Of a stretch of DNA of 64,000 nt, positions 18,060 through 63,402 are shown piece after piece. The notes beneath the pieces were generated by a model, which worked only from the letters and a program-made list of their open reading frames with translations, was not told where the DNA came from and did not search any database. This DNA is from Phoronis australis. Its lineage: Eukaryota > Animalia > Phoronida. Position numbers and translations under genes: made by a program. Positions within the stretch are counted from its first letter, which is position 1, and every line of letters starts with the position of its first letter. The stretch is from contig NMRA01000160.1 in the NCBI GenBank assembly GCA_002633005.1, positions 375,217 through 439,216 of the forward strand, read 5' to 3'.

Positions 18060-18405
18060 CAGTAATTCTTTTATACGTCCTTTACATACTGATAAAACTT
18101 ACTGAATTGGCTTGGAGATTGTTGCTAACTCAATGCCTATAGACGTTGCTTTTGTCTGAGGTGTGATATTCTCTCCTTCTGTCACAGACGCGTCTGTGTG
18201 TGAGTCCTATGTAGAATTCTTTACAGTTATCACATTCAACTTTATAAACAACATTGCTTTTATTTAATAAAGGAATAGGTGACTTCAGTTTACACAGCAC
18301 ATTGTTAAGTGTACGACGAGGTTTGAAAACAACTATCATCTTAACGGCTGGGTCAATGCAATGTAAAAGACGAGATAACTGGCGTTTCAGCTTCAGACTA
18401 CTAGG
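18060..18405 (-). mobile_element. Penelope-like GIY-YIG endonuclease fragment
   Basis: IVVFKPRRTLNNVLCKLKSPIPLLNKSNVVYKVECDNCKEFYIGLTHRRVCDRRREY matches the PLE VVY..C..C...YIG.T motif. Confidence 0.8.
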
Positions 18406-18409
18406 CCCA

Positions 18410-21180: not shown

Positions 21181-21184
21181 ACAC

Positions 21185-24394: not shown

Positions 24395-25158
24395 ATTGAG
24401 AGTGCTTTCTCACATCAAAACACAAGTGAAATTGTTAGATATGAATTCTTATATTTTACTACGTCAATGTCTGAATACACTATAGAGTATCGAAGAGCAC
24501 ACAATAACTCACCAGTGGACTGTTGAAACGTCTATATTTTCGTAACATCTCACTCGAAAACATGGGCCTGAATTTACTCGCGGTAACTATACATCAAAAT
24601 GTAAGTGTAGAAACCAAAATGTAGAAAACTAACAAACACATACACTTGTACTCCATGCCCCAATTACCACCCTTTACAACCAGCACAAGTGAACCTGAAA
24701 GGCTTTCTAACGTTAACCCCCAATTTATTCAGTAGCATAGCACTGGTGTAGATATTCTAACGACATGTTCCTAATTTAGACGAGGACTTTCTATATTTCA
24801 AGCCGCATAACAGTGACGAGCAGGATACGAAATATCCTTCCGAGCTGATGAAAGGTTGAGTAGCAATCAAAAATCACCGTCATGGTTACGTACCAGGACA
24901 CGAAAGATAGCCAAAGGACGAGTATTTCTATTTACTAAGGTGATTGTCGACTTTTTATTGATTGTTTAGCAGCTCCAATGATCAGAAGAGCCTTAAATAA
25001 GTCATTTTCAACATTTATCTACAAGAATACTCCAATACGTAACTGTAATACAAAATATGAAGTAATTTTATGTCACAATGAAATGAAATGACATTTTATC
25101 ATTTACTAAGTTTCAACTCGTTATCTATGTAGGTTCAAAATATAATACGCAGAGACAT

Positions 25159-25544
25159 TTAGTACAAAGTATCAACCTCAACAGCCATTTCAGTCGAAGC
25201 ATCATTAGCCTCTCCTGTGACTTCTCGTAATCTATTCGTTAGTTCAGCAGGCTGAATTGTCACGTGACTTCGGTTATCGAATGCCTCGTTGAAATCCCCA
25301 ATAACAGACGAAGATGGTGATATTTGGTTGGAACTCTCGGCGTCGTCTTGATTGCTTCGTCGTCGCTTCGTGCGCCAGTACACAAAAAGTCCAGCAACAA
25401 AGACAACGAATAGAACGCTTACAATCGCAGCCCATACCGTTAAGCTGGTCACGGCATTGCTGAACGTGGCCGAATCGACAGCATCAATATTAGCAACAAT
25501 GTCATTGCCGTTGGGGTCATCCGCCACTAATGGCCCAGAAGCGG
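25159..25544 (-). CDS. last exon: stalk, transmembrane helix, cytoplasmic tail, stop
   Basis: Acceptor ctatttgcag. [23 protein letters not shown] followed by RTKRRR (stop-transfer), ending EVDTLY*. Confidence 0.85.
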
Positions 25545-28500
25545 CTGCAAATAGGAGGAAGTTCATGGGAGTTACAAAACATGACCAAACTCGATGAAAA
25601 GGAAGACTTTTGTGTTTCAGTATCCTATATTCTTTAACAACGTTACCTAGTATCTTCTCAGTCCATCGAAATGACGCAAGACTTCACCACGTTTTTCTAG
25701 CAGAACAACTGATCTTCCTAATCGAGGCTGATTCTGAAGGGATAAATTTCACTTCCACGCAATCTACTGTACGTTGACTGACACAGCATACGAACAATTA
25801 GGTCTGCGCTGCGTAGACCCAACGCGCAAAACTTCGCAAGATATCGCCATGCATGATAAGCGAAGCTTGTGATCAAACTCAAGCCCTATGCGTGAAATGC
25901 TTGTCTCTATTAAATGCTACTCAGGTCTAATGAAAACGATAACGACCAACTTAGGGTACGAACCTGATCCGCCTCCATTAAGGGTCAGACAGTGATATCC
26001 GCCATGATAGTTGAGGCATACTTTTGGTGCCGGACACGTTGATGCAATGAAGGCAGGATCATCGCATTCGTTCACGTCTGTAAATGTAAAATCACGCTTA
26101 CTGTTAAGAATAGTTGAGTTGAACACACAATCGTACCTTCCATGTTATTGTTTTAGTTGCTTTTAGAATGCGCTCACTGTCCATGCATTCAAAAGTTTCG
26201 CCATGGAGGCCACTATAAGTTGTCCTGATAAATTGTAAACTCGTAAAACACACACGCACGCACACGCACACAAGTGAGCCAAGTTGATACCCAACCAATC
26301 ACTTCTGATTCATGTTTCGTCATAAAAATGACGTCAAGTAAGTCAGCAACGAAGGCAGTACATGGGCGGCGCACCACAGGGGGGCTGGGGAGCTATAGCC
26401 CCCACTTTTGCGGTGCTGCGCCGCCCATGTAGTAGGCCTACTTCTCAATGAGGTCACCTCAGCCATAAAATTTTCCGTAGCATTTTAACTTGATCTCCTC
26501 TATAACATGCACGCACCCAGCCTCCAATATGGGAGGCTCGAATTCCTGACGTTGTGGACCTTTTGGTAACAAAAAAGCGGGTGGACTAAAAAAAATACAG
26601 GGGCGCCACTGTGAATTGCGCGTTTCTGCTTATTTAGTGGACTTTTGTCTCATTTCCTCGGACTTTTTCTCGGAGGCGGACCTTTTTGCCCACTTCGCCA
26701 AATAAGAAGGCTCCTTCGAGCCCCCCGAGCCCCCCCCCCTGGGTGTGCGCATGTATGACACACTCCTTGTACAGTAGTTTTCAAAATAAACTGAGCAAAC
26801 TTCGATAGAACTTGCCGAACTTGCACAAATATCGTGCCAGGAATATTTACCAGTTTAGACGAACTTTAGTCGCAACAGGAAGAGTTTTTGTCGAACTTGC
26901 GTCGTCGGAGTTTAAAGTGACTTTACTTAGCCCCGAATTATCCAGTAGTGAAAGGACTTGTTCAGTAGCTTGTTAAGATTTCGAAAACGTGCATGAAGTA
27001 AGATGTGTCAGGATTTTCGTCAAGATTTAGCCAGAATTGGAGCCGGTCTCTAATTAAAAACAATGAATAATTTGTCGCTGTTTTGAGCGGCAAAACCTTA
27101 TCGTTGACGTAGTCCGGTTTATTTTGACACTATAATCCACACTGCGCTCGTGAGTGATAGTTGATAGTAAATTCGTGGCACTGGCGCAAGTCTTACCTCG
27201 CAGGTTGTAAATTTGTTTTCATGTTGTACTTTTAGAGCACCAAGAGTAGTTCAACATTGACTGTGTACAGAATAATAACAAAATAACAAGCACGTGGAGA
27301 TTTTTGTGAATGCTGACAGAAAAATGAAATTGTTTTAGATTACTGAAGCCTACTGCTAATGGCGGCGAGAAATGAGGCAAAACGAATGGTGTCGAGCCAC
27401 TACTGTCTATGCAACAACGAATCACGCTCTTGATATTGTTTCTAGACCCAACAGAGGATAAATAAAACATAACTAAAATGATGTTTAAAATTTGAATACT
27501 CTTTCAATCGTTACCATTTGCTACCACTTTCACCTATAAAACTCTCCCGATCTGAACTACTCTCCCTCGGAGGTTGAGAAACGCTTTGTATGACCGACTT
27601 AGTGTCATCACTTGCGCATTTAGACAGAAATATATGTGCATTCAAACAGCACTGAAATTGCTTTTTCGTCATCTTGGGGTCAATACTATCCCGCCCCACG
27701 AGGCCAGTTCCCCACGTTGCTACTTGAAAGTCTCCCATAAGAAACGCCTTTTCGAAACACCCGGCATAGAGTACCACAGGCCTTACCAACACACGAATGT
27801 TTGTCAGAAGCAAGGGTAAATCCATCGAAGCAGGAGCAGCCGTATGACTGCGTCGTTTCTACACATGTGTGCATGCAGCCGCCGTTGTCGATCGCACATT
27901 GGTTCTTTGCTGGAAAATAAAGATTGACCGGAGTCGTGTAATTCGCAACCATTACAACCATCCTCGTTCCAACTTGATGTTTGAATACCCTGGTGATTTA
28001 AACAAGTTGAACTATGGGTGCGACCATCAAATTTTAATCGGAAATTGACCAATCGCACAGCGTGAAATCGGAAATTGACCAATCGCACAGCGTGAAATCG
28101 GAAAAGCTATGTACTGGAAACGTGCCACGTAGTTCCTCAATTTGCGAGATGAGTCTCCAATAAAATTTGTTGGTTGGAAGTGAATCAGCGAAAATTTGGG
28201 ATGGACTGGCTAACCCTCAGATTTACTTAAGTTTTTTTGATTTGTAAATGGCAGTGAAGTTCTTCACGGTGACGGCCCGAAATGAAGTACAAAGCAACAA
28301 TGGGAATGATTTTGTTGGGCCACTTCGAAATTCTTACATATGACAACTGGCTGAATGAAATAAAATAAAGTGGCATCCATTTTGCTTATACGGGACGAAC
28401 TTACACTAGGATGCAAACGATTCCCATGTGATGTATAGGGAATCGAACAACAAGATTGCTAATTCACCAACATTAGGGTCAACAGTCCTTGGTTTAAAAT

Positions 28501-31500
28501 TCACGTTAACACAGGATTCCATGTCAAGGAAATTACAAAACATGGTTCCTGCATGGTAAATATCAATAATCAGAATAAAAATACAAATCATAATGTTTCC
28601 TGTATTACTGTAATTTCAATCGTTTAGTTATTACTCACCTTTGCATTTAGTTCCATTCACCGGAAGCCAGTTGCCATTAATTGCACAGTCACAGTAGGTG
28701 TAACCAAGATAGTCGTTGAAGCATTTGAGATTTGACGCTACAAAAACGTGCATAAAGTAAAATGAGCTGTAACTAAAAGATCTACATCACCACACTGACT
28801 AACTTATTTAAAATGATATCTCAGCAAGATGAGGGATTTCGATTGTCGATTTGAAAGGTTTGTGTATAAGAACGGAACAAAATGAACTGTTAATTACATC
28901 AGTTTTTGATCATAATAAGATCAAAAAACGGACATGTAATCTGATTGGTATGTCGACACTTGATGTCTTATTGTATATAGCCTGATGATGTCTAATGAAT
29001 AGACGAAACGTCGAATCAGTATGAACTTTTTCATTTGTGCGGCGATTGTCCGTTCTTTGAAAATGAATTGTGAAAGTGATCTAGGGTGGCATCATTTTCA
29101 GTCAAGTGGAGTTTGAATAGGCGGCGTGATTCGAACCCTGTGTTACGAGCAAGCATTTCAAAATAGGATCATCACTTGATAGGCAATATGACACCTACCC
29201 AAGCAATAGGATCCAGTCTCTTTCACTGGCCACGTGTTTCCGTTAACGGTGCAGGTACAGTAAGCACCAGAATCCTCCGAGTCGCATTGCAGTGAACCTG
29301 GAACGGGAAACATGAACAAAACGCGTCTATTTGACCGGTAGCTTGTGTATGACTTGCAATAATTTTTACGAGCATGTGCATGCTTTCGCTTGAAATCGCA
29401 ACATTCACAAAAGTGCAACCAAAGTTCAACTGCAATCGATTAGTTTGCACATTGCAATCATCCAGAAAAAGGCAAACGTTGGTAATGTTTCACTGTACGT
29501 CTCCTCTGTCAAATCCCATTTAAACCACCTAACTACCTTACGGACAAATGGTGATTCAGTGGTTACAGCCAATTGTTTACTGAATGGTGCTAATCAATCG
29601 ACGAAGAACATAAGGTTACGTGGCAGCATTGACGTGCTCCGTTTGTAATCTCGTCAGCCTCTAGTGATCTCAGTCAACTAAAAACCTTAATTTTCACTTA
29701 CTTTGACACTGTGATGCATCCACCTCAAATGCCCATAAAGTGAGTTTAGGATTTAGCTCGAAAAACTCGGGACACGCGCAATAGTAACCGCCGTTTGTGT
29801 TGACGCATTCTTTTTCACAGCCGCCATTGCCAGTGGCGCATTCGTCAATATCTGGAACAAGAGACAATGTAAAATTTCCAGACTTACTGGAAAACTGTCG
29901 CAGAAGACGGGCCCAGGGCTGAGCGCACCACCTACGTGTATTTGAAAGTCAACGAGCGAGCCTTTCGAGTAATCACGAAATGCCCGTATGTTGCATTCAA
30001 ATGCATGTACATACAGGCGAATACTTAGGTCAGGGAACAGTGGGCAGTTGCTTAAAAAACAGTGCTCAAAATGAACTCCACCACGTTCCTGAAAACTTCT
30101 ATGTTATATGTTTCAGACACTTTACGCTTAATGAGCCTCTCTTTCAACTGACAAATTGAAAGTATTTGTCTGAAAACTTGAGTCCTTGTTTTAATGAAAA
30201 TACAGGACGAGCACCTAAATAGGTGCTTTGCAGTTCATGCTTTCTTTACACTGGTGCAAGAACTAAGCCCAACGACTCACCGTAACAGTCTCTCTGGTCT
30301 AAATGCAGTCTGTAACCTGTGTTACACACGCAGTAGTAACTTCCCTCAGTGTTGATGCAGATGTTGTCACATCCACCGTTATTAACGAGACATTCGTTGG
30401 AATCTGAAATTCAACGGTCAGTCAAGTTGCAGTGAGCACCAGGCCAAATGACCAACATCGATAGCAGAATTACACGACTTATCATCAAAGTAAGGTGCAA
30501 CTGGATATTGCAGTATTGATAGACACTTGAGAAGTGAAGGTACACTCCACAAGAGGTTTGTAGGTTTCTGTGTATTGGCAGACAGAGAGACTGACGTCAA
30601 CAAACAGACCTGATAAAAGTGTAACCAGAGGACCGGACTAAGCAAGTTAGATATCTGCAATTAAAATTCACATCTGCCACGTTTCATTAAGAACCCTTGA
30701 CGTATGTAAAATATTTAGACGTTAATTAAATCAGTTTTTGGCCACAGTAAGATTAAAAAGTGATCCTGATGATGTCTAATGAAAAGAAGAAACGTTGAAT
30801 TGAACATGAACTTTTTTATTTGTGCGGCGATCGTCCGGTTTTTATTATTTAGACGATATCTTGTATTGCAAAATTGCCTCTACGTGGCACAGCAGTAGTC
30901 ATATACATCCGAATAATGAAATCGCGTAAAGATAACGTGAAAAATGAACCATTTAGAAGTTGCTACTGTCAGAAAATATTGGTTTCCCAAATGTGAGTTA
31001 TCGGCACAGATGCACGGAAATTTTGATCAAAATGCTATCAAAATTACCGTAACAAGAGCAGTGGTGAGCTTAAATCCAGAAGAACACCATGAGAGGACGT
31101 TCACCAACACCACGCCATAATACAATCCGTCTCAAGACAGCCGTATACAAGCGAAAGAAACGTTGACACCGCAAAGCATGCTAGGTAAAAAAGACTAATT
31201 CATTTGGTAATGCCTATTTCTATCATAAATAGGACCGTCCCGGGTTACACAGCGACACTTGAATCTCGCTGTATTTACCCACAATGCCGCAATATCCGTC
31301 GAGCACTTATAAAGTCTTGGCGTTTTCGCGCCATTGGAGTTACACGTGTTCTTTGTTGTTGGTTGTTCTCGGCTTCATTACTTAATCTGTCGGTCTGGTA
31401 TGCCAATAAAGCACTACTGCTGCACTGTGGGCTCCAACTCTGGCTGGAGGAAGTTGGATAAATTTGACAGATATCTGTGGACAAGTTCGCCACCTTCCAG

Positions 31501-34500
31501 ATATCAACCAAAGAGAAGAAAATTCTGAGATAGTGGAGAAGGCACTGTTCGTCGGGTTAAAATTGAACCAAAGCGAATCGAATTTCTTGAAGATATCGTC
31601 CAATTCCGGCTCTTTCAGACGGTTGGCATCAGAATATTTTCACGGCCATACACTTCGATGGTTTTCGACATGACCTGTGAAAATGTGCCTCACTTTTCAA
31701 AACTAGGTCAATGAGAACATCGACCTTTCTTACCTCTGGGACAAGGGAATCCTTCTATTGCCTTGTAATCCAAGACGGCTTTATTGTAATGTATACGGAA
31801 TTCACAGGATGCTTGTAATCATAAAATCTTAGGGATTTTTGGAAATATTCTGTTCAGGACACTACCACAACGATAGCGCTGCGTGACCATGCCAAACTCG
31901 CAAGAAACTAGCCGTAAGGCGAAATAAGCCTCCATGTCTCTTTAGAGTAATTTTCATAAGGGAACCTACCCTGGCACTGAGTTCCATTCAGTGGAATGAC
32001 CTTGCCGTTTTCTTTACAAGAACATAACTCTCCATACATGCTTTTAAACTCTTCGGTGCATACTGTTGAGTTCTCTAAAACGAATCGAAATAACATAAGT
32101 GAATGAGTTCACCACAAGTGTCAATGTTATTTTTTACCAAGTGGCATATATCTCTTAACTTTTTAGAACATTCCTCTCCTACACTATATATGACATAAAG
32201 GCTATGCAAGTGTCTTCTATTCATTGCGAATGTAATATGCTGCTAGTCCCGTGGTGCCACTGCCTGACGATAGCCACAGTGTTGCCTGACCTTCGACTGG
32301 GATAATTCGTTGATTGCAATATTTGACCAAAGAATAACCCCATTCGAAGAATTCACGAGCAATGAGTTGATGGAGCACCAATTAAGTCAACTTGAAATTG
32401 TTACTTCAATCTGGAATAAATCATGTTTTTGGCAGTGAAACTTTCCGTTTGGACAATCTATGGACTGTATTCAATCGATGGTTCTGCGATACGCAATTAT
32501 GAACGTCAACTCACCGTTTTAATACAGAGCTACGCAAAGTGTTGATGTGTGCCCGTCGTGTACATCGCACGCAGCGCAGATAAAAAAGGTGCACGTGATC
32601 GTTATTTTAAGCACTCCCACTAAACTGCAATGCCAGTATACTTAATAGTACTCTAGGGGATGCAAAGCAAGTCATTGCACTATGTTGTGACCATCAATGA
32701 ATTTGATTGCTACATGTTTTCAACTAGTTGTGCTCAACATCTTGAAACGTGTTTTCTGTTAATATTTCTGTGAATTCAATCAAAACGCTGTAATGAACAG
32801 CTATGCTCGTACAGGTTGATTATTTCTGTTTTCATCCACTCACCATCGCAAGTAACGTTTCCCGCACCACCTGACAATTCACTTCCTGCGCCACAAGCAC
32901 AATAATATCCGCCTATCGTGTTGATGCATATATCCTGACAGCCACCGTTATTTGTCAAACACTCATTGACGTCTGCAAAAGAATGTGAGAGCATAATGCA
33001 GTGAATACATTTGCCATTATGATATTACTATGTGAACAGCCGATGCAGAAAACAGGGCAACCAGGTAGCAATTGTTCGTCTTTAATCTTATTCCAAAAAT
33101 AGTAATTTGAGCGGGCAAGAGCATTTGACACGGCAATCCGTAGCGTTATGAGAGTAAAAACGATTTCTGCTCGTTCCACTTTCAATTTCTGGTGAGCTAG
33201 ACGGAATGAGTTAACGAAGACGATTCGCAATTTATGTCTAACAAAAATGTGTGGCGTTAGGTCTGAATCATTTGAGTACGTACCCCAAAGGGCAACCGAG
33301 GTGATTGTATGACGTGATGCAGAGGCGAGTCCAGGAATTTAAGTTGAGGGGTAATTAATGGTCAGACAGCCATGTTAAACCACCCACACCTTGGTGAAAA
33401 CTCAGAGACTTGAGAGATTAGATGTAACACTCGTGTGGCTTTGTCATGGTAGTCGCGCTCGAGATGTCAGTGGAAGTACTTTTGGTTGAATTAGTGACAA
33501 GAATTGATCAGAATTCTGATACTCTCTGGAATATCGACCACGAAACAGGTGAGTACGCACACGAAAAAAACTTGTGAATCAAATTAACTAACCTGTAGCT
33601 TAATCAGAGCTCTGAATAAATTAGGGATCCCAACTTGAAGCTGGAGGTACAATTTTAAAGTTGGGGTGGGCTCTGTTAAAGTTCGGAAAGTTTGGCGCCC
33701 ATCAGCCTGACAGGCCAAGACCGTGGGATTAAGGCAATCAGACGGCCTAGCAGAGAAGGGAACGGTTGGAAAATTGTGAACCAGTATAGCACAAATATCG
33801 AACGGGTATAGTCTAAGGATAAAATCGAACATGCAAATAACATAGAGTGCTCAAACTGTAAGGCACTTAATTACCGTCCAGTGTATCACGCGTTGTGCAA
33901 GTATCACACTTCAACTGCTTCCGGTGCTTCGTCAAACATGACGCAGTTGAACTACTTTGCGATCTTACCGGAGACAAACAATAGTCAGTTGGTTGCTTGT
34001 CACAGCGACGGCTGAGGTGGAACTGCATGTACTCACGATCCAGTCATATTTTCAAACCCATGACTTCATGAGTACCGTTTTGGCACTTTCAGGAAGGACC
34101 CAGTGTCGGGTGTCTGAATTTTTGGGATTCAGGCGGGCTCCCAAGTTCATTTCAATTTTCAAATCCACTCGAGGTTCGGAATGACAGTGCTTCTGCTGGT
34201 GTCTGGATGGACGACGGAAATTTTTTGAAGTATCGGATGATGTTTTTAGTTTGGGAACCCAGAGAGAAACACGAGGGCTTATATTAAGTTTCCAGAACAA
34301 CCTAAGAATGCATGGTGTACACTATTAGTATATTCTAAAAGCAAGAAATTGTCTCCAATGGATAGGCACGGGTCTGTTGCCGAATAGACATCGGCAGTAG
34401 TTCAGAGCCGCGGCATAAGCATGGATGCTGATAGACTGAAATTTTATTTCAGCACTGACGAAACTCCTGCTTAAAACCCGACGGATTTAGAAAAGCAGTA

Positions 34501-52500: not shown

Positions 52501-55127
52501 GAAAGATATTCACATAATTTTACCGTAGCTGTACAAGTGGGAGGACGGCACCTAGCGACTATATTTCCATGTATTTTCGAGCTCTGGTAAATTACCACAG
52601 ATTTCGTGATAAATAGACGTCATAGTGATCCTTGATAGCTGTGGATCAGAAGGGAACGCACCGAAGAGTCTGAATTGTAAAAATACAAAAACCTGTAGAA
52701 AAAAGAGTTACTTTGAGAAATTTTCATGTGACAGAATTCTGTGTCCTAAACTGTGTCGCCACTGACCAATCAAGACTATTACGCAATGCAGTGAATAGAA
52801 GTCGTGACTAAGCCTAAGGAACTTTATAAAAGAACACCCAACACCACAGCCCATACACCTGCTCGCAATCGAGGTATTTATAGTTACATGTCTCAGCCGG
52901 TCGAGTCTAGTACCTCATACATCACTTACCGAGTACTCTTTAGAGAAATTGTGGGAAAATTAGGAAAACTTGAAAAGCTACAAGACGACTTGTCAAATGA
53001 AATAAAGAGACCTTTTAACTAAAAGTCTCCAAAATAAAACAAGAAAACGAAAGACTGAGGAACTAAAGAGTAAAACTAGAAAGGAAAGTAGATGACGTTG
53101 AAAATAAGTCACGACGAGAAAATGATATTTTTCACGCAATACCAGAGAAAACACATCATGAACTTGAGAAGAAACAGAGAATGCCCTCAAAGAAACTCTA
53201 ACCATCTCAACCTTAACGACGTAAAAATCGACCAAACGGTCAAATTTGGAAACAAATAACCTATTAAAATGCACCTTCTTGTATTATAAACAAGATGAAC
53301 TTCAAAGATAATAAAATCTTCAGGTCTAAAGAAAGCTGAAAGAAGAAACAACTTTCTCTTTATCAGAGCACTTCTTCACGAAAGTTCGGACCGTAGATCG
53401 AAATTTGGCAATTTTCCAAAGACGAATGAACCATTTAAACGAGACCCCTATAAAGTACGTCAAATTGTATTACAATAGAAAAGTATACTTCTTTGATGAA
53501 AGAGTGAATGCAGTTCTCTCCAATTCTGGTGAAAACTCTTGCATAGAATGGCAGGCAAGGCTATGTGTCACTAAATTTTACTGTTAGAATATCGGTGGAA
53601 ACACTTTTAAGCGCTTTTAAACTCGAAACCTGCGTCGCTGTCGTCCATGGCTCTCCCAACAAAAAGTGGATATAAGAAGTGCGCAAACGTTCCGCACACT
53701 TTGAGACTAAATATTTAAGTCTCATTTGAAAAAAAAATCGAATTGAAAACTTTTGAAGGCACCGTGCAAATTTGACATTTTTTTCATTTTTGTATTTCAC
53801 ACATTGTCTTTAAAGGCGTTGATCGTTACGAGTGTTGACACCAGCCAATGTCACCACCAGTGCCTGCAGCGACCCACAGACGCCCAGACAGAGAAGATAA
53901 CAATATGCACCCACATATAAGTATGGTTTGGCGCATAAAAAGACAAGTACCAAAGTACAGTACACGTATGGTCGTTTGCCTTTGTAATCCTTTGAATGTC
54001 ATTGAATTCACTTACCCGGGCATCCGTTGGTATTGCATAGCCGAGATCTAGAGGTACTTCCTGAACAGGGGCTGCCGCCGTTAGATGGTTCAGGATTGTT
54101 GCAAAGTCTAGTCGACACCTGTGATCCACCACCACATGTCTGAGAACAAGGTCCGTAGGCAGACCACTGCGACAAACCACCGTTCACTGAAACAAATGAA
54201 CAGCAGAATTTGCCACCGCAAACACCACATGCTTGTAACTATTTACATGTATATGATGTGCTGGTGAGTAATCATGGCGAATTGCAAATGAACGTGGTGT
54301 AGCCATGTAACACGAAAAGGGGCAAAGGCTTTCCTGTGTCATTGCAAAAACACATCGCCGATTGACACTAGTTTGAACTAATTTTACACTTAAAATTTAA
54401 GTTGTGTACATATAAACAAGGACAGCCTTAAGGTCTCGAGGTCAAAATCATCAACTTTGTTCGTTGGGGGATTTGACCCTCCAAGGCATCGTCATATTCT
54501 GGAATTCCTGATTTGGCAACTAGCCTGCCGGGACATGCAAATTAAAGGGTCAAGTCGGAAGCAATAATGACCTTTCAATTCTTCTCGATCCTTCAATTAA
54601 TGGTCTAATCTTAATGAGCAGCAAGACTATATTGATTGTATAACAGTTACTACAGGTACATGTAGCTTACTGCACACCGAAAGTCAACTTTTGACAGAAG
54701 ATGTGGATTTGTTGCCGCTTAAAAAGACGACATTGACTCAGCTATAGAGTGCTACTGGCAACCGAACAGTCCAGATTCAAATCCCACCGTATACCAGGAA
54801 ATTTAGAGCCTTAAGCACCCACCCACCATGACTACTGCATACGCGTACACGTTCCACGCAGACTTATTGGTCAGCTTGAAAGGAAAATTGTGAAAAATTA
54901 AAATTCACAACGAATATAAATAAACCAAAAACAACAGCTTTTAAAAATGGTAGCGGCATCTGTTTTTACGCGTTGTGCTCAACTGGCTATGAGATTGTGC
55001 ATATTAATCAAGGAGTAGCTGGCGGGGAGATTTTTGTAAATGAATTCAGAAGTAGATGTAAAGATATGGAATGCGAACATTGGAATGGAGAATTGCTGTC
55101 TTGAAGGTTACTAAAATAAATGATTAC

Positions 55128-55159
<32 letters not shown>

Positions 55160-58100
55160 GTATATGCGCGCATGCACTTCTGCTTGAAAATCGCCATTTG
55201 TTTTTTACATTAAAGGCCAAAGGTCACATTTTTGACAAAACGGAAATGTTCTACGTCTATGTCTTGCCATACCAAATGAAGAGAGGTGCTTTGCCCTGTG
55301 GGAGAAAAACTGAAAAAGTGACGAGCGGCTGACATCAACAGAAATTTAAAGTCTGAACATCGCCTGGTGAACAATGTGATATATGTTTTAAAACTTTTAG
55401 AGGCAGAAAACGATATCGAAGAATTTAATTTTGTCTGGTGTCACGCTCCATGTCTCTTTAAGACACCGTAGGTGGATATTTACCTGGTTCACTGGAGCCG
55501 CCACCACCACCACCGCCGCCACCATCTGTTGCTGAAATAAAGATGACTTTTTTCATAAAGTTGAAGTGGAATGCTGTTGATTGCGAATGGTAACAACAGT
55601 ATTACATCTCCAAGTAAGTCAACGCGATGTCATCAAAATCATAATGCGCCCAACGATAGCATCGCAAACGGCGTGCTTCTGTGGGTGTTTTTAGTATCAT
55701 AAAATGACCGTAAAGTGGCGTAAAATGCGTCAAATCCATCGAAATTGAAAAAGTGGCGTCGTCTTTGTAAAAAACAACTAAATGCCAAATTTCATGAAAA
55801 TAAGCCAAGGAACTCCTAAGATATAAAGGCAAACGTAAAAAACAATTGGCTTCAGGGAGTGCAGGTATAGTCCCATTGATCGGAGTCTTATAGTACTCTG
55901 TTGCCATCTCTATAACAGCCCTGGTACAAAATAACGCCGAAGATGCAAAAAGTAAAACTGCACCTAAGGGGCGCCAGAATAGTCAAAAACATCTAAAAAA
56001 TCAACATCAGATAGAGTCTTTGCATCTGAAAAACAAGTCAATTTTTAGAATCGTCCTTTGAGTGGTTTGGCAGATAGAGAGAAAGACAACAAGAATACGC
56101 GAAAATTTTTAAACGGCCACCAGGTGGCAAAGAAAACACCAAATCTGAATATGGGAAGGTGTTGTCGTGTGCTAAATAGAAATCTATTTGCCGAATTTCA
56201 CGAAAATACCTTACTGAAATCCGAAGACACAGCCCACCGTAAAAACAAGAGCAACGCAAAGCTTTAAAATGCGCCCAAGAATGCACTGCAAACGGTGTGC
56301 TTTTAGGGGTGTTTATTTGTATCACAAAAATGGGAACTAGATGGTGCAAAATACTTAAAATCCATCAAAAAATGGAAAATGTCACCGTGTATAACACAAA
56401 GCTATTAAACACATTTCATGAAAATCTGTCAAGAAACTTTAGAGAAACAGAGGCAAACGGAAAAAAATGAAATTGCCACTTGGGAGCACAGCGTTCGCCG
56501 GATCCGTCTGAAAGTTGTCTTCCGTTGCCACCTTCAAACAAATACACTTGCTAAATTTAATAAAAATCCTGTAGAGGGCTTAGGAGATACAGCTGAGGGC
56601 GCAAAAAACTTCCACCAGGAGGGACCACAATAATTGAAGTAGGAAAATCATCGTCAACCGTCCTCTTCACGCTAAGAACATATAAGCCTATTTTCATAAT
56701 CACCCTAAGAGTGGTTTGGTTGACAGAGGGTGGACGCCAAAAACAGACTAGAAAACACTAAAAAATGGCCACTAGATGGCGCAAAACACGTGAAATCCGT
56801 CTGAAAACCGAAGAAAGTTATCCTTTTTTAAAAGAAAGCTATTTACCAAATTTCATGAAAATTCGTCGAGGAACTTCAGAGAAACAGAGGAAAACGAAAA
56901 ATCATCCGTCTGAAAGTCATTGTCTGCCGTTGATAACTTCATATAAATACACGAGTTAAATCTAATAAAGGTCCTGCAGAAGGCTTAAGAGATACAGACA
57001 TTGGCGCAAGAAAACTGCCACTAGGAGGCGCCACAGTAGTCGAAGTCTTCTGAAAATCATCGTCAACCGTCCTCTTCATAGTAAGAAAATGCATGCCAAT
57101 TTTCACAATCATCCTTAGAGTGGTTTGGTTGATAAAGTGGCAGACACCAAAAAAGAGACGCGAAAATAGTAAAAATGTCCACCAGATGGCACAAGATGCC
57201 TCGAATCCGTCTGAGAAAAAAGATGGCATCACCTCATTAATAGATGCCTATGTGCCAAATTTCATGAAAATCGGTTGAGAACCTTTGAACATACAGAGGT
57301 AAACGTAAAAAATTAAAATTGCCACTAGGGGGCATAGCAGTATTTGAGTCGGTCCGAAACTCGTCAGCCTATGTCGTCAACCCCATACGAACACAATAAG
57401 ATCCTGCAAGGGGTTTACAGCTGCGGAAGCCGGACGCCCGGACACCCAGACACAGGTGACGGCAATATGCACACACAAATAAATATGTGGGCGTATAAAA
57501 ACGTTACGCCCCAGGGGGCACAGTGGTATTTGGGTCAGTTCGGCACTCGCTACTGTTTGTCGACTGCTCCACAGGAATACGTCTTTCAACTTTTACAAAA
57601 CTCCTTCAAAGGGTTAAGTAGGTTCGGCCCCAGACGGAAAAAACAAATCAAAATCTCTAGTAGGGGACGACATGGTGGTCGCCCACGTTCAAACGTCGAC
57701 TTCAGCCATGGCCTTCACATCAGGAACACATCTGTTAATTCTCAAAATGATCCTTTAAGTGGTATGACATTATAGGGAAACAGATGCTAGAAAACGGACG
57801 CAAAAATAACAAAAAGGCCAACAGGTGGCACAGAAAACATCAAATATGTCCAAAACTCAGATGGAGTTGTCGCTCCCCCTAATAGGAACCTATTTGCCGA
57901 ATTTCATGAAAATGAATTACTGAAATACTACGATACAGAGGCAAACGTAAAAAGAAATATTTTGCCATTAAAGGGCATAGTGGTAGTTGAATCAGACACT
58001 CGTTGCCGTTTGTCGACTGCTCCATAGGAATGTATCTTTCAAATTTCGCACAAAGCTCCTTCATAAGGTTAAGGAGATTCGGCCTCAGACGCAAAGAAAC

Positions 58101-61100
58101 AAAATCGCCACTAGGAGGCAACACAGCAGTAGGACCAGTCTGAAACTCAACGTCAGTCATCACCTCATCAATAACACATCAGTAAATTTCTATAATGATC
58201 CTTTGAGCGGGATGGAAGATAGAGAGTTGGACGCTAGAAATAAAAAATATCCACAAGGTGGCGTAATAGTCGTCGAATCCGTCCAAAAATCGAATGGCAT
58301 CATAGCCGCCGTATTAAAACCCTATTTATCGAAGTTCATGAACATCCGTAAATGAACTCCAAATATACAGAGGCAAACGTAAAAAAACTAAAATTGCCAC
58401 TAGGGTAGCGGTTTTCGGGTGGGTCCGAAACTCATTGTCATCTGTTGTCAGCCACATAGGAATACACTTGCCAAATTTCAATGGGTTTAGGATATACAGC
58501 CGCGGATGCTGGACGCCCGGACGCCCACAAAGAAATGACAACATGCACCCACATATAAATACGTGGGCGCATGATTAAAGAGTCAAATCATGAAAGGCAA
58601 GAAACGTCACTTTACCTATGAAGACACCGATGGAATGCTGATAATTGAACTGTCCTCCATCAGGGGTCCTACTCTCGCCCACGGTGGGATATTGGTTGTT
58701 GTTAATGACGAAATAAGGTATCGTGTAGCCACCATCTGCGCGGTAGGTGAACGATATCGGCACGACGCTACTGCCGAAAAAGCCCCATCCTAGTCGAGAG
58801 CCGCTAGTTACATCTGGGCGCTCAGCAATATCAAACTACAACGAGAGGTTATGCAATAGTATTACAGCAAGAATTGATGTGTTTGCGTTATGCTTCTCGT
58901 CTTTTTTATTCGGCGGAGTTTATATAAACTAGTAAAAACAACGCTTGGCGTTAAGTGCGCACACTGCGTATTTCGCGAACAGCAAAAATACCAGGGTAAT
59001 GGCGCAACAGTATTTATGTCCACCCTAAACGACATAATCCTCAAAATGAGACGACCTTTAAAGCTCTTTGGCAAATGCACACATAGACGTAAAAACAGTC
59101 AATACTAAAATTTTACCTAGAAGAAGCCGGCAGGATTAGTCGGAACATGTTGCCGTGCTCAATTATCACCAGAGTCTGGTGAACAGAGGCATCTGGTTCT
59201 GCATTGGTCAACCAAGGATGAGGACAACCGGTGTTTTTCAACCAGCTCAACACAAAAAGCATGGTTTTGCAACTTTTACTGGCTGATGCTTTTCGCCCTG
59301 GTTGTCTGGGTAAAAGCCATGATGTCTTTGCCTCTAATTGAGCCGGTAATATTCCTTATCGTAATAAGGTTCTATTTCCGTTACCAACAAGAACACTGAA
59401 ATCATCGGCGACACAAGAAAACGCTTCAGAGTCTATTGGGGTTGGTAAAAATCCTAAAATTGGGAATTCGAAAGTGGCGCATGCGCGACTGCCAGTGGCT
59501 TGAATAGGCAACAGAAATGGATTCCCACCACGGTAGGACACCAATTTCGTAAAAATCCTAAGTTAAATTTCGTTTTGAACGATGTTAGTAGGGCGAAAAG
59601 AAGGTTAATGTCATAGAGCAGACGACACACTCGGGCTGAGGTCACCATGCCCACCACTCGGTCTCGCCATCTGGTGCGAACTGGCAGTTCGCACCAGATG
59701 GCGAGACCGGCTCGATCACAAGTCTCGCATCCATCATCTATTAACACTACAGTTTGCTTAACATATCTGACTTCTGGTTTGTCATTTGCCACACACAAAT
59801 GAGGCCAAGTAGTGGGTATACAACTCGGCTAAGCAAAATCTAATTATAACTACAGTCATTTCAGTAAACGCTGGTTGTGATCCAAGTCGTCACTGCTCAT
59901 AATGTCACTCCAGCAGAACACTTTAATTGTAGGCTTACAGTACAGGTATGCTTCCATTTCCGTATCTCATCAGGATTGCCCACGACATCACAGCGTGCAA
60001 TGGAAATCATTGCCCACCATTTAGTCTCGTTTCCGAGATGTTCACCGGACTCTAAATGCTAATGCAGGCTGCGTGCATTACGATCGAGGCCCGATATTAC
60101 AAGATAAGGTAATGCTTTTTCTGTCTGAATATATAATGTGTAGGTTTACGAGGCACTAAATCCCGTGCTGCCCAATGCTCACAATGTCGCTCGAGCAGAA
60201 CACTTTAGTCAAGTATTCAACAAATGTATGCTTTTATTTTCGTATCTCGTAAAGGTTACCAGTACCCGTACTAGAAAGTATGTAACTGAAGTATCCGAGC
60301 ACCAAATGAGTAAGTTTTTGTTTCAAAAACACTCAAAAATGTGAGTGGTGCTGAAATACCCATACAAATCAGATTGGTGCTTACCAAAAATTTCACTCGC
60401 TTTCGAGCAGTTTGTCAGACTGCAATGCTACTCGAAGCTGGAATGCGAGAGAAGAGAGTTACCTCGCAGTGGTAGGAAAACACCTACTAAATTTTATGAA
60501 GATCCGCCAAAGAACTTAAAGTGGAAAGTGAGGCAGAAGAAATACAAAAGTTCAAAAGACTACAATCATGCCGCTAGAGGGCACGACAGCGGTCAAATCA
60601 GTCCGAAAATTAGCAACTGTTCTACAACGCACACGAGTTGTCGAATTCTGTGCAAAGCAATTAAGATATGCTCTCATAAACAGGAACACGCTTGCCACCT
60701 TTCATAGTGATTCTGCAAGAGGTTTGGAGGATAGTGTGGCAGACGACAAAGGACACGAAGACAATAGGCATGCTGCTGGGGGATAAAACTTAGGTCAAAT
60801 CCACTTGAAACAATGCCGGTGTGGTTTTCTAGGTTAAAAACGTATTTGCCAAATTTCATAAACACCCACAAACGAACTTGGTTGATATCAACGCAAACGC
60901 AAGGAACTGTCACTGGGTGACGGATTTGCCCGCTTATCCACACCAGATGTATCCTGCTCACTAGAAACGCATGTCAAATTTCGGAAAGAACCATCAAGGA
61001 AATGGTATTGAGCCAGACAAAAATAAAACTCCTACAACAAGGCTCCACAACAGTCGAACTGGTTAAAGAATAAGTGACACCCAGGCACACCCTAGTACAA

Positions 61101-63402
61101 AAATATATGCCTATATTTTACAGCTGTGAACTGGGACAGTTGTGACGGTGGTACTGTCTTAGTGTCATTATGATCCTTAAGAGCGATATGACCGCTAGAA
61201 AGGTAGGTGGCAAGAACTAGACTGAAAATAAATAATTACAACAAGAGGCCACTAGGTGGATTACAACACTTCGAATCGAATTTAAAATGATAAGATGTCA
61301 ACTTCTCACTAATAAAAACGTATTTGCCATGTTTCATGTACATTCGTCAAGGATCTCCGAAGATTCCGAACAAAACAAAAGTCCCAGTTTTAAATGTAAA
61401 AAATAAACTTGTCACTACAAGAGGCACAGCAGTAGTCCGATACGCCGGAAAGACGTCATTTGTTTGTCGCATTTATCGGAAAAGAGATGCCAAATTCAAC
61501 AACGATCCTGCAGGGGTTAAACAGATACAGTCATGGCTGCAAAAAAACGAAAGTCCTGCTTAGGATGCCTCAGTAGTCAGGTTTCTCTGAAAAATGAACG
61601 TTAGCCACAGTCATCTCAACAGGAGGTCGTCTGCTAATTTTTACTGTTCCTTCCAGCAGTTTGGCTACCGGAATTCCTCACCTGTAAATTGTATCAAACA
61701 GGGCGCTGTGTTTCAATCTTACCGTCTGTTTGCCAGCGTCTGGCTTAAGAGTGACGTCTCCGGACCAGTATAAGCGCCAAGTATTGGACTGTCCACTCAC
61801 AGGTGACCACAGGCCAACACGCAGCTGCAAGCCAGTTGACCCAGAAGTTTGCTTCCAAAGGGAAACCTAGAAACAAGATAAGTTCTCAGCTTGCATCTTC
61901 GCTTGCAATGCACTATTCCCTTTCACTGACTTTATATGAAACAAATGACTTGCTGTTTATAGAGAAAAAGTGAATAACTTCTCATTTCGCGTAATTGAAA
62001 ATCGTAATGTTTGAGCTGTATTTCCGGGGAAAATCTTCGCTTAAGGTGGCACTCAATATTTTTGAGTCGCGGTGGAATTCGCATCCTCCAATTTCACATT
62101 TCATTAAAACTTGGTGTCTTTTGGTACGGTGGGGCATCTTGAGTTTTGCGCTGCATGCAACGGCTACGAATGTCATTTGCTTGATATTTTTAGTGCGTTC
62201 TAAATTAAAGATTGTCAATTAATCACCCACTGCTTGCAAGCGGAAGCTGAAATTTAGCAAAAAGTTCTTGTACTCTCCGGACTTTCTGTCTCAAAATTTT
62301 CACCTGCCTTCTGTAATCTGCAAAGGTTTGACACAACATAACTTATTGTTTTATTAGCAAATGATGTCGCCGTGTTCAGTAAAGGGCCATCTGGGATTAC
62401 TCAGCGACACTCGAATGTCGTTGTATTTACCCACGATGCCGTATACATCCGTCAAGCATGTTTGCTGCCTCGTTTTCGTGCCACTGCAGTTTCACATGTT
62501 ACTTGCTGTTGTCTCTTTACAAGTTTTTACTCAATTCGTGTTATCAGTGCTGTGCTGTGTGCTGGCATGTTTATACAGGATTTTAGTTAATCCTTCTGAT
62601 TAACTTTCTACCAACGTCATATCTTCGAGATTACATATTGGATTCTAATGTAACTTTTTACTGTGCACTGTTTTCCAAATGTTGTTAAGACAATGTTTTG
62701 CTTCGTCATGATGGTGCTACAAAAATGGGGGCCATTAAAATAGCTCAAAAAGTTACATAAAACGAAATGGAGAATATGATTAAGAAAACTGTAACAGTGT
62801 GTTTGAGACCTCATCTTGAATATTTATATCAAAAGATATTTGTTCATGTTTTTGATAGCGTTGGTTTTCCATTCGTCGTGAATGTATTTTTCACACGGGT
62901 TTTGCTTTTTCTCTTGAGGCTACATATTGCTTAAATCACCGACGAAGTTTTATCCATTTGGCAGTACTACAAATTTTCCGAATCTTGCTAACAATTAATA
63001 AGTCGTCTGACACCAAACATACATTTAGGCAAACCTCTCCCTCTCCAGTGTATTTTTAGCCCTGGTTGTACGGTAAAACATACTACGAACAGAACAGCAA
63101 AAGTGGGAAATAATATTGTAAACAGCTTTCAATGGTTGAAGTGAAAGCTTCCGCATGCTAAACTAGTGCAAAGCTGTAACATTACATCTGCCACGATTGT
63201 AGAGTACGTTTTGCCTATATTGACGCTTTGTAGCTTCGACAATTTTCGTACAGCAAACAGCAACAAATGTTGTGAACAAAATCATGACTTACACTTTGTA
63301 GTTTTCCATTCGGTAAATCTGTGTTGTCGATGAAGTATACAGGGTTGGCATTATAACCTATATTTCCATATTGTCTTGCTTTTATTTCTTCTCCATAGAA
63401 AG
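25159..63402 (-). CDS. giant type I transmembrane collagen-like protein (novel domain, 2x TSP1, novel domain, ~2,290-aa collagen, cbEGF/4-Cys array, TM, tail); 20 exons, 5'-incomplete
   Basis: Exons 63402-63293, 61866-61723, 58835-58616, 55531-55484, 54186-54016, 52498-52322, 47677-47562, 46923-46780, 46134-45918, 42081-35185, 34804-34769, 32972-32844, 32074-31970, 30403-30281, 29851-29702, 29297-29199, 28737-28639, 27909-27787, 26077-25964 and 25544-25159. All GT-AG and phase-compatible, totalling 9,608 nt of open frame. Confidence 0.82.
25964..26077 (-). CDS. exon: truncated cbEGF (4 Cys)
   Basis: [38 protein letters not shown]. Phase 1-1; donor gttcgt is weak. Confidence 0.8.
26361..26429. 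mobile_element. tiny hairpin MITE
   Basis: CATGGGCGGCGCA...TGCGCCGCCCATG. Same family as 5787-5850. Confidence 0.55.
26507..26753. mobile_element. MITE
   Basis: CATGCACGCACCCAG...CTGGGTGTGCGCATG inverted ends. The right arm matches 23540-23610 in reverse complement. Confidence 0.55.
27787..27909 (-). CDS. exon: EGF-like
   Basis: [40 protein letters not shown]. Phase 1-1. Confidence 0.9.
28036..28104. repeat. 30-bp tandem repeat (~2.3 copies)
   Basis: AATCGGAAATTGACCAATCGCACAGCGTGA repeated. Confidence 0.8.
28639..28737 (-). CDS. exon: 4-Cys module
   Basis: [32 protein letters not shown]. 99 bp, phase 1-1. Confidence 0.85.
28982..29058 (+). ncRNA. minimal hammerhead ribozyme core in a dispersed repeat (Penelope-type)
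   Basis: CTGATGA-T-GTCTA-ATGAA-TAGAC-GAAA-C-GTC: intact CUGAUGA/GAAA core, 5-bp stem II, and loopless stem III ending in a GUC cleavage triplet. Stem I partner not evident. Confidence 0.6.
29199..29297 (-). CDS. exon: 4-Cys module
   Basis: [32 protein letters not shown]. 99 bp, phase 1-1. Confidence 0.85.
29702..29851 (-). CDS. exon: calcium-binding EGF
   Basis: [50 protein letters not shown]. Confidence 0.9.
30281..30403 (-). CDS. exon: calcium-binding EGF
   Basis: [41 protein letters not shown]. Confidence 0.9.
30766..30845 (+). repeat. hammerhead-bearing repeat fragment (degenerate copy)
   Basis: CTGATGATGTCTAATGAAAAGAAGAAACGTTGAATT...TTTGTGCGGCGATCGTCCG, homologous to 28982-29058. Confidence 0.6.
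31970..32074 (-). CDS. exon: 4-Cys module
   Basis: [35 protein letters not shown]. Phase 1-1. Confidence 0.85.
32844..32972 (-). CDS. exon: calcium-binding EGF
   Basis: [43 protein letters not shown]. Confidence 0.9.
34769..34804 (-). CDS. 36-bp exon: last collagen triplets
   Basis: ttttcag|[12 protein letters not shown]|gtaagt, with a split Gly codon at the 5' junction. Confidence 0.85.
35185..42081 (-). CDS. 6,897-bp collagen exon (~760 Gly-X-Y triplets)
   Basis: Acceptor gatttatag at 42082, linker [13 protein letters not shown], then GST-GPP-GPP... in the same frame as ORF 35072..41164, ending at donor CAAG|gtaaga. Two interruptions seen (GSGTGTG near 41880-41900; GI-GIT near 38060-38072). 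Confidence 0.93.
42489..45515 (+). repeat. pearl/Helentron-associated-like composite repeat array (~150-bp monomers, ~453-bp higher-order unit)
   Basis: Starts ACAAGAGC..ATGCGCCCAC, then tandem ~147-160-bp cores each with CCACTAG(G/A)(G/T)GGC, a (GGAC/GCCGGAC)n microsatellite at 43587-43665, and terminal hairpin ATGCG.CCACATATAAATATGTGGGCGCATAAAAA (43678, 43854, 45490). Confidence 0.75.
44084..44611. mobile_element. one end of a TTAA-GAG (Sola3-type) element inserted in the array, cut at a contig join
   Basis: The array is interrupted at TTAA|GAGCATGTTCGCG. Unrelated sequence runs to the single N at 44612, after which the array resumes. Confidence 0.45.
45564..45704. mobile_element. MITE
   Basis: CGTTCAGAAATGCTAGGACCTCGCTA ... 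TAGCGTAGGTCCTAGCGATACTGAACG inverted ends. Confidence 0.55.
45918..46134 (-). CDS. exon: novel domain copy 2, part c
   Basis: [26 protein letters not shown]...[12 protein letters not shown]...FQFSVGVDM. Homologous to 58616-58835. Confidence 0.88.
46780..46923 (-). CDS. exon: novel domain copy 2, part b
   Basis: [48 protein letters not shown]. 144 bp, same size as 61723-61866. Confidence 0.88.
47562..47677 (-). CDS. exon: novel domain copy 2, part a
   Basis: [38 protein letters not shown]. Homologous to 63293-63402. Confidence 0.85.
49497..51210 (-). mobile_element. non-autonomous Kolobok DNA transposon with THAP domain and KolX/P2RX7-C-like remnant
   Basis: TTAA|AGGAGAATGCCACCC...GGGTGGCATTCTCCT|TTAA (15-bp perfect TIR, TTAA TSD). 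THAP zinc finger CIVPAC...FFRLP...KWL...RVCDRHF (50751-51050). [11 protein letters not shown] motif near 50510-50550. Confidence 0.85.
52322..52498 (-). CDS. exon: thrombospondin type 1 repeat
   Basis: [56 protein letters not shown]. Confidence 0.93.
54016..54186 (-). CDS. exon: thrombospondin type 1 repeat
   Basis: [57 protein letters not shown]. Not shown in this frame in the ORF track. Confidence 0.93.
55128..55158. repeat. (GATT)n microsatellite
   Basis: tgattgattgattgattgattggttgattga. Confidence 0.8.
55484..55531 (-). CDS. 48-bp exon: poly-Gly linker
   Basis: ttatttcag|[15 protein letters not shown]|gtaaat. Phase 1-1. Confidence 0.75.
55640..58575 (+). repeat. second pearl/Helentron-like composite array (same family as 42489-45515)
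   Basis: ACAAGAGCAACGC..ATGCGCCC at ~56245, ~150-bp cores with CCACYAGRKGGC, GGACGCC motifs, and hairpins at ~57465-57500 and ~58543-58572. Confidence 0.75.
58616..58835 (-). CDS. exon: novel domain copy 1, part c
   Basis: [31 protein letters not shown]...[29 protein letters not shown]. Confidence 0.88.
60480..61600 (+). repeat. older, more degenerate copies of the ~150-bp core repeat
   Basis: GCCGCTAGAGGGCAC (60570), GGCCACTAGGTGG (61247) and ccaaatttca motifs. Confidence 0.5.
61723..61866 (-). CDS. exon: novel domain copy 1, part b
   Basis: [48 protein letters not shown]. Confidence 0.88.
63293..63402 (-). CDS. exon: novel domain copy 1, part a (most 5' exon found)
   Basis: [36 protein letters not shown]. 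Phase 1-0. Confidence 0.85.

Follow-up and report, generated by a model that had tools for sequence, protein, structure and literature searches.

The window, the 64,000-nucleotide stretch of Phoronis australis DNA analysed here, carries one long gene on its minus strand (25159..63402; all features below lie on this strand). Its 20 exons splice into a single open frame of 3,201 aa, with AG acceptors at all 20 exons, GT donors at all 19 introns, and a sole stop at 25161–25159. From N- to C-terminus the protein comprises head domain 1, a Gly linker, two TSP1 repeats, head domain 2, 765 Gly-X-Y triplets, a stalk of five EGF and three 4-Cys modules, a predicted transmembrane (TM) helix, and a 72-aa tail. 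These values agree closely with the first-pass annotation, which had described 20 GT-AG exons in one frame of ~3,200 aa and ~760 triplets; the domain order it gave, ending in a predicted C-terminal TM helix, RTKRRR and a ~70-aa tail, was borne out by the frame, Pfam and Kyte-Doolittle hydropathy together. Pfam was run on 17 of the 20 exons, the remaining three being Gly-X-Y or Gly linker.

Head domain 1 is encoded by exon 1 (63293..63402, aa 1–36, first third), exon 2 (61723..61866, aa 37–84, middle) and exon 3 (58616..58835, aa 85–158, end). Exon 1 was placed by the spliced frame; because it begins in phase 1, at least one further exon must lie beyond 64000, and no signal peptide was found within the window, the exon 1 frame closing just upstream of the exon. 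Exon 2 is joined to exon 3 by 9 and 10 RNA reads, and exon 3, which is supported by frame and RNA, stays open up to its phase-1 donor. A 48-bp Gly-rich linker exon of phase 1-1 follows (exon 4, 55484..55531), and then the two TSP1 repeats, exon 5 (54016..54186; Pfam TSP_1, E 8.7e-12; 14 and 7 reads to exon 6) and exon 6 (52322..52498; E 1.1e-12; 12 and 8 reads to exon 7). Head domain 2 occupies exon 7 (47562..47677, first third; 25 and 8 reads to exon 8), exon 8 (46780..46923, middle; 14 and 4 reads to exon 9) and exon 9 (45918..46134, end; 13 and 6 reads to the collagen exon). The two head domains mirror one another exon for exon in identical phases, exon 2 being 65% identical to exon 8 and exon 3 49% identical to exon 9.

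Searches with the head domain returned little. Pfam gave no meaningful match for the six head exons, and a search of 1.84 billion representatives gave six matches. Five of these were repeat or unrelated proteins; the sixth, P0124 (78 aa, E 1e-4, from a metagenome contig), was alone in aligning along the entire exon. An additional ‘longer’ search and a search of prokaryote genomes found no match, and PDB sequences yielded nothing below E 0.5. Atlas leads were lectin-like, PHR and DUF4082, all below 0.9 (0.83–0.89). Scores against the DUF4082 profile were 2.2 and 2.1 bits; of 924 scored shuffles, 41 and 42 did as well, and the hhalign score was equalled by 9–11 of 100 shuffles. An AlphaFold model of a single head exon (pLDDT 44) was too poor for a fold search.

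The helix lies almost entirely in exon 10 (35185..42081; 6,897 bp, aa 450–2748, supported by frame and RNA depth), which encodes a Gly/Ser linker and nearly all of the Gly-X-Y sequence; exon 11 (34769..34804, 36 bp) adds the final triplets and is joined on its two sides by 25/12 and 30/17 reads. The triplets run as 17 + 425 + 323, with two breaks of 1 and 2 residues, and each of the 120 matches listed of 3,176 has a shorter helix. Exon 10 has 7% Pro, a net charge of +145 and no Cys; the Y position is 22% Lys, 20% Thr and 14% Pro, and 40 triplets are KGE/KGD. We rejected the idea that the helix is a repeat expanded during assembly: every exact 30-mer of the 6,897-bp exon is unique within it, reads span all ten bins, and no skip or indel was listed by reads across it. 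As the first-pass annotation had stated, no COLFI or C1q domain was present; neither these nor C4 gave a Pfam match in the 17 of 20 exons scanned within the window.

Immediately past the helix, exon 12 (32844..32972) encodes a calcium-binding-type EGF (EGF 1), followed by 4-Cys module 1 (exon 13, 31970..32074), EGF 2 (exon 14, 30281..30403), EGF 3, which has a long last loop with a Trp (exon 15, 29702..29851), 4-Cys modules 2 (exon 16, 29199..29297) and 3 (exon 17, 28639..28737), EGF 4 (exon 18, 27787..27909), and EGF 5, shortened to four Cys and followed by a Gly linker (exon 19, 25964..26077). All five EGF exons matched Pfam EGF_CA or FXa_inhibition and are supported by RNA, with a Lingula comparison in addition for exon 15 and the frame for exon 19; Pfam gave no meaningful match for the three 4-Cys exons, which rest on frame, a 4-Cys profile and RNA. 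The coding part of exon 20 (25159..25544), joined by 27 and 22 reads, contains a juxtamembrane segment, the predicted TM helix, RTKRRR, the tail and the stop. The 3′ UTR (24600..25158; depth 35x and 37x) extends at least to 24600, the limit of the mapped region, with AATAAA/ATTAAA motifs at 24959 and 24729. The sole strong hydrophobic segment of the protein is aa 3110–3128 (Kyte-Doolittle 2.8). On its N-terminal side are the TSP1 and EGF_CA domains together with six N-glycan sequons, and on its C-terminal side is the basic RTKRRR. Type I topology is thus very probable; because the N-terminus lies beyond the window, this judgement rests on domain order, charge and a Lingula homolog. The ectodomain contains no RxxR, so release by furin is not expected.

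RNA data showed that the gene is real, that is, expressed and spliced in one frame. Stranded reads with CT..AC ends covered 16 of the 19 junctions (9–46 reads in run X1, 4–34 in X2). These included all ten from the collagen exon through the TM exon (12–46 reads each, two runs), confirming that the helix is spliced to the EGF/TM stalk as had been proposed, and the three that the first-pass annotation had singled out for checking (35185/34804, 34769/32972 and 25964/25544). The three junctions without listed reads were 63293/61866, which is outside the mapped regions, and the two flanking the 48-bp Gly exon, for which none was among the matches listed; a join of head domain 1 to TSP1 was likewise absent among the junctions listed. 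Implied depth at the Gly exon was only ~4x against 8–15x in its neighbours, and this exon may be skipped or under-mapped. Depth was 30–49x in the stalk, 24x/18x in the helix and 8–29x in the head, a smooth fall as expected for a single 3′-biased transcript. Transcription is sample-restricted: mean depth of the collagen exon was ~24x (range 17–32x) in X1 and ~18x (13–25x) in X2, and only 0.15x (<0.5x throughout) in X3. Exon pieces were absent among the matches listed for X4 contigs, a result without evidential weight. Two alternatives raised at first pass, that the collagen exon ends at an intronic stop (35072) and that the EGF/TM exons form a separate gene, are both contradicted as the main transcript, the first by junction reads and depth and the second by reads joining helix to stalk. 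Counting exon bases only, the bin with the stop had an implied depth of 26x and 25x, the same as the next bin; a minor isoform ending at 35072 may exist. We hold this architecture of head, helix, stalk and TM helix to be highly probable; the reads behind it are short, and none spans a single molecule from head to tail.

The Lingula anatina model LOC106170605 (XP_013406006.1) begins with a signal-peptide-like segment; it has a Thr-rich helix, a matching stalk of 4-Cys and EGF modules and, at the C-terminal end, a hydrophobic helix. Its hydrophobic segments, at residues 7 and 2783, enclose the head, 309 triplets and the stalk. A profile of the window’s three 4-Cys modules gave three matches in it (E 3e-8 to 2e-5) and none in 125 other proteins. 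In both proteins the collagen leads directly into a cbEGF without COLFI, tandem 4-Cys modules are followed by EGF, an EGF has a long Trp loop (exon 15 here, two EGFs in Lingula), Thr is abundant at Y (42% in Lingula, 20% here), a globular head is N-terminal, and a hydrophobic helix with a short tail is C-terminal. They differ in triplet number (765 here, 309 in Lingula), in the head, which is a duplicated novel domain plus TSP1 here whereas Lingula has IgGFc-binding domains, and in the stalk, which here lacks globular domains and furin sites. The Lingula stalk has two furin-type sites, RRKR and RKKR, and one of them lies just past the post-helix EGF, which favours release of the collagen at that point and speaks against a lasting tether. 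LOC106170605 is an unverified gene model that could fuse neighbouring genes, and it is the one homolog with the layout of the window collagen among the 120 matches listed of 3,176. No candidate was found for the Lingula 4-Cys pair among proteins of 30–1572 aa, and an AlphaFold model of the Lingula 4-Cys/EGF stretch (pLDDT 40) was too poor for a fold search. With the same layout and a homologous stalk in Lingula, the window collagen is not an orphan.

Lingula collagen+EGF proteins without COLFI are a published group, which Luo et al. (2015, PMC4595640) regard as fibrillar collagens of the shell matrix; a membrane anchor for them is mentioned neither in that text nor in the literature searched. 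The window collagen has the traits of this group, namely a helix with EGF, no COLFI in the window, and homology beyond generic EGF through the 4-Cys profile, and by its stalk it probably belongs there, LOC106170605 itself not being matched to the 17 genes of PMC4595640. In contrast, the MACITs (XIII, XXIII, XXV, COL-99), collagen XVII and nematode TM cuticle collagens are described in PMC4678570 and PMC11304992 as type II proteins with an N-terminal anchor, a juxtamembrane coiled coil, a furin site, short interrupted COL domains and N to C folding. One TM helix tethers a triple helix in both cases, but here the order is reversed, the only anchor predicted within the 3,201 aa sitting at the C-terminal end, opposite to known membrane collagens. 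Neither a juxtamembrane furin site nor the C-terminal collagen/NC4 ending with two Cys occurs here; the helix, without Cys, passes into the EGF stalk and TM. Fibrillar collagens differ in having a C-terminal COLFI propeptide and one helix of ~338 triplets (337–342 in the fibrillar matches), versus runs of 425 and 323 here.

The 765 triplets, EGF repeats and predicted C-terminal anchor together suggest a triple-helical filament, likely ~650 nm long and tethered at the cell surface. Our best explanation, to which we give a probability of about 0.55, is a type I membrane EGF-collagen that tethers epithelium to outer matrix; the tether function itself we hold to be slightly favoured. A signal peptide upstream of the window would send everything N-terminal of the TM helix into the lumen. 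In the ER membrane, the TM helices of three chains would bring their C-terminal triplets together, so that the helix could zip from C to N without COLFI, NC1 or C1q. PMC11304992 states that triple helices can be nucleated by TM domains, citing Bulleid 1997; according to the title of that study, the procollagen C-propeptide can be substituted by a TM domain. Stability of the Pro-poor helix might come from hydroxylation of the Pro at Y (14%), from modification of the Thr at Y (20%) and from the 40 KGE/KGD triplets acting as salt bridges; Thr at Y is glycosylated in Riftia cuticle collagen and linked to its stability (PMC11766948), and KGE/KGD salt bridges are linked to chain registration (PMC11923368). 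The Ca-binding EGF stalk would space the rod from the membrane, and the TSP1 repeats, two head domains and basic rod would bind glycans or matrix. The trimer would then sit in the epithelial-cell membrane with its heads likely bound to cuticle, tube or shell.

The anchor might instead serve folding and delivery only, a sheddase cutting the stalk and the trimer being released as a long cuticle, tube or shell fibre. Supplement table 25 of PMC4595640 places four Lingula collagen+EGF proteins in the shell proteome, and these are basic and Gly/Ala-rich like the window helix. The stalk of the Lingula homolog contains the RRKR and RKKR sites noted above, very long helices occur in annelid cuticle collagens (PMC11766948), and furin sites could free the nematode TM cuticle collagens (PMC11304992). 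However, the ectodomain here is without RxxR, an eight-module stalk and 72-aa tail would seem to exceed what nucleation needs, and for a collagen made in bulk as structural material the mean depth, ~20x from one fifth of a run, looks modest. We regard release as a serious but rather unlikely alternative.

It is improbable, in our estimate, that the protein is a recognition or scavenger receptor whose polycationic rod and heads catch polyanions, particles or microbes at a long distance from the cell, in the manner of class A scavenger receptors. The +145 charge of the helix, the TSP1 repeats and the weak Atlas leads would suit such a role, but the DUF4082 similarity is not significant, and a 650-nm rod would far exceed the needs of capture. 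The collagen domains of scavenger receptors are, moreover, short and type II. An error at the 5′ end of the model, such that an N-terminal signal anchor gives the protein a second anchor or head domain 1 comes from a different transcript, we judge very unlikely. The missing signal peptide, the three 5′ junctions without reads among the matches listed and the low depth of the Gly exon point that way; against it, head domain 1 repeats head domain 2 with equal phases, exon 3 runs without a stop to its phase-1 donor, and the Lingula homolog opens with a signal-peptide-like segment.

If the membrane-tether reading is correct, replacement of a C-propeptide by a TM helix would be a natural version of the engineered swap. 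Of the first-pass reading, the architecture, the splicing of helix to stalk and the C-terminal anchor held up; its claim of novelty was weakened by the Lingula model of the same layout and by the published collagen+EGF group without COLFI. A type I collagen with RNA support here and a second case in Lingula would add a topology to the collagen family, and it suggests that some published Lingula shell EGF-collagens may begin membrane-bound. We lean, by a small degree, towards a previously undescribed lophotrochozoan class of type I membrane collagens, in which TM replaces the trimerisation propeptide, a sub-micron helix with exchangeable heads acts as a cell-to-cuticle, tube or shell tether, and which may be a source of long Thr-rich cuticle collagens. 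The protein would allow one to ask, in a natural setting, whether tethering to the membrane is enough to register three chains. It would also be a model for ER export of very long rods and, with a nearly unbroken helix at 7% proline, for the stability of Pro-poor, Thr/Lys-rich helices.

Streptococcal Scl1 and Scl2 also have a distal globular head, a collagen stalk and a C-terminal cell anchor. The resemblance is one of layout only, with no homology implied; these proteins are bacterial, short and wall-anchored, and their head nucleates folding. Annelid cuticle collagens (Riftia, Alvinella, Nereis) resemble the window collagen in part, with a very long helix and many Thr at Y; their reported lengths of 1.5–2.4 micrometres exceed the ~650 nm rod predicted here. 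They are known from protein chemistry and EM, with no membrane anchor described in the available part of PMC11766948. Collagen VII of anchoring fibrils supplied the top matches of the helix search and likewise has a long helix linking epithelium to matrix, but the likeness is one of Gly-X-Y composition only, and collagen VII is secreted, with at most 499 triplets in runs of ~106 or fewer among the matches listed. Four collagen VII models among the 120 matches listed had a late-chain hydrophobic stretch, the strongest being that of P0088 (3.15).

The minus strand of the window contained a stop-free stretch of 2,338 codons (42088–35075), one third of which encode glycine. Reading the flanking DNA, we joined 20 exons with AG/GT ends into a single frame of 3,201 aa that ends at position 25159, in agreement with the ~3,200 aa and 20 exons claimed by the first-pass annotation; nearly all domain borders were in phase 1. 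The domain order proposed there also held in the spliced frame. The N-terminal part comprised head domain 1 (three exons), a Gly linker, two TSP1 domains, head domain 2 (three exons), and a Gly/Ser linker. These were followed by Gly-X-Y runs of 17, 425, and 323 triplets, a stalk (EGF, 4-Cys, EGF, EGF, 4-Cys, 4-Cys, EGF, shortened EGF), a hydrophobic helix (aa 3110–3128), RTKRRR, and a 72-aa tail.

RNA carrying the same species label was available as three raw runs (X1, X2, X3), about a fifth of each being used, and one contig set; X1 and X2 came from one study. First mates in X1 and X2 mapped to the plus strand, as expected for minus-strand RNA. Every one of the ten junctions from the collagen exon (35185–42081) to the TM exon was listed, with 12–46 reads each across both runs (19–46 in X1, 12–34 in X2). 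Six more were listed in the head region (9–25 reads in X1, 4–10 in X2), giving 16 of 19 in total; one other fell outside both read-mapped stretches. Because the two junctions flanking the 48-bp Gly exon were absent among the rows listed for X1 and X2, and because its implied depth was ~4x versus 8–15x nearby, this exon may be left out in frame, or reads may map to it poorly. Collagen exon depth was 0.15x in X3 versus 24x and 18x in the other two runs; expression is therefore sample-restricted. We concluded that the gene is confirmed and RNA-supported.

The helix is unusually long and nearly unbroken. At the collagen rise of 0.286 nm per residue, the computed rod length was ~656 nm, within the ~650–700 nm estimated previously. 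Among 120 matches listed of 3,176 (proteins of 1,263–4,022 aa), totals reached at most 499 triplets and single runs at most 377; most of these matches were collagen VII, matched by composition. We rejected assembly expansion of the helix, and regard it as old sequence, because no exact 30-mer occurred twice in the collagen exon and internal matches reached only 69–91% over 33–150 bases. The helix had 7.3% Pro, no Cys, and a net charge of +145, with Lys (22%), Thr (20%), and Pro (14%) at Y and GAT as the commonest triplet (n = 73). Proline was highest at the ends (17.8% in the first 45 triplets, 10.4% in the last 45, 3.7–9.6% between), and 40 KGE/KGD triplets were spread along its length. Three RGD motifs (aa 774, 1659, 2186) lay within the triple-helical region and would be cryptic if helical.

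The head domain has been duplicated: two of its exon pairs are 49% and 65% identical. The domain, ~158 aa and Cys-free, had no Pfam or PDB match; one 78-aa metagenome fragment (E 1e-4, 32% identity) is a plausible relative. Against a DUF4082 profile made from 23 bacterial domains, the two copies scored at about the 95th percentile of shuffled sequences, and 9–11 of 100 shuffles reached the profile-profile scores.

One listed helix match, the Lingula anatina predicted model LOC106170605 (2,861 aa), had a hydrophobic N-terminus, an IgGFc-binding head, and 309 triplets in which Thr fills 42% of Y positions. Directly after its triple helix came an EGF, then two 4-Cys pairs and more EGF and IgGFc domains, and a hydrophobic helix at 2783 preceded a short tail. 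Of its four 4-Cys modules, three were matched (E 3e-8, 1e-6, 2e-5) by a profile of the three Phoronis modules, which matched nothing further among 126 proteins; when shorter proteins were searched for the 4-Cys pair, no candidate emerged. Both proteins have a long-loop EGF. This single homolog indicates a lophotrochozoan host, probably a lophophorate-like one. The 4-Cys module probably derives from EGF by truncation, given its alignment with the final four EGF cysteines. In the supplement of PMC4595640, rows 1071 and 1085 are Lingula genes with IgGFc-binding best matches, which may or may not include LOC106170605; both show mantle enrichment (values of 304 and 206 there, 0–11 elsewhere).

Type I topology is likely, because the extracellular modules are N-terminal and the basic residues C-terminal of a single TM, and because the homolog's start is signal-peptide-like. 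Triple helices of type I collagen zip up starting at the C-terminus, and a TM domain can serve as a nucleation site (PMC11304992, citing Bulleid 1997), so a C-terminal TM would provide chain registration in the absence of COLFI, NC1, or C1q. The chains may be kept in register partly by salt bridges (PMC11923368). The Thr-rich Y position recalls Riftia cuticle collagen, which carries glycosylated Thr there (PMC11766948).

The resulting protein would carry adhesive heads at the distal end of a rod that stands on an EGF stalk; we infer each functional step. We favor a retained tether (probability roughly 0.55) over three other readings. A shed matrix fibre is possible but doubtful: LOC106170605 has two furin-type stalk sites (RRKR at 1467 and RKKR at 2090, each after a long-loop EGF), which suggests cutting into modules, whereas the Phoronis ectodomain has no RxxR. 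Two polyadenylation-like hexamers, including an AATAAA, lie beside the in-frame intronic stop downstream of the collagen exon (35055–35083, minus strand), and a minor secreted isoform could end there; depth in that bin was fully accounted for by exon bases and lends it no support. Atlas leads for the head were lectin-like, PHR, and DUF4082 (all below 0.9), and a capture receptor seems unlikely. An incorrect 5′ gene model is quite improbable. Exon 1 requires an upstream partner beyond the window. Short reads link adjacent exons, a single head-to-tail molecule being beyond their reach; the junction from head domain 2 to the collagen exon had 13 reads in X1 and 6 in X2.

Published work on Lingula (PMC4595640) reports 17 genes that combine EGF with collagen domains and treats them as a new group lacking COLFI; four are in the shell proteome. 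The word 'transmembrane' is absent from that paper's main text and appears five times in its supplement, never in connection with collagens. Passages of PMC13425148 and PMC9290575 make the same point about EGF-collagens and mention no membrane anchor, and MACITs (membrane collagens) are defined as type II (PMC4678570). No C-terminally anchored animal collagen was found in titles and abstract openings from an open-access library or in passages of PMC12549020 and PMC3018142; subscription journals, and with them the first reports on annelid cuticle collagens, lie outside that scope. We read the Phoronis gene as an EGF-collagen variant whose membrane topology was not found described for animal collagens in that literature.

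Elsewhere in the window, an assembly gap (~16491–17364, 874 N) lies outside the collagen gene. A diverged repeat family (~400-bp unit; 42400–45500 and 55600–58600) fills the introns adjoining both head domains and attracts many reads from other loci. A THAP domain inside intron 6 (50754–51086, minus strand, Pfam E 8e-13) is likely a transposon remnant, and this region had reads on both strands. Decayed mobile-element fragments (18133–22595) included a weak integrase core match (19745–20116, E 0.002); the other ORF pieces there had no Pfam match. Two similar, single-exon LRR genes lie in tandem (5912–8722 and 1–1014, both minus strand), and the complete one, ~925 aa long, combines a weak Ig-like match with a C-terminal hydrophobic segment and almost no tail.
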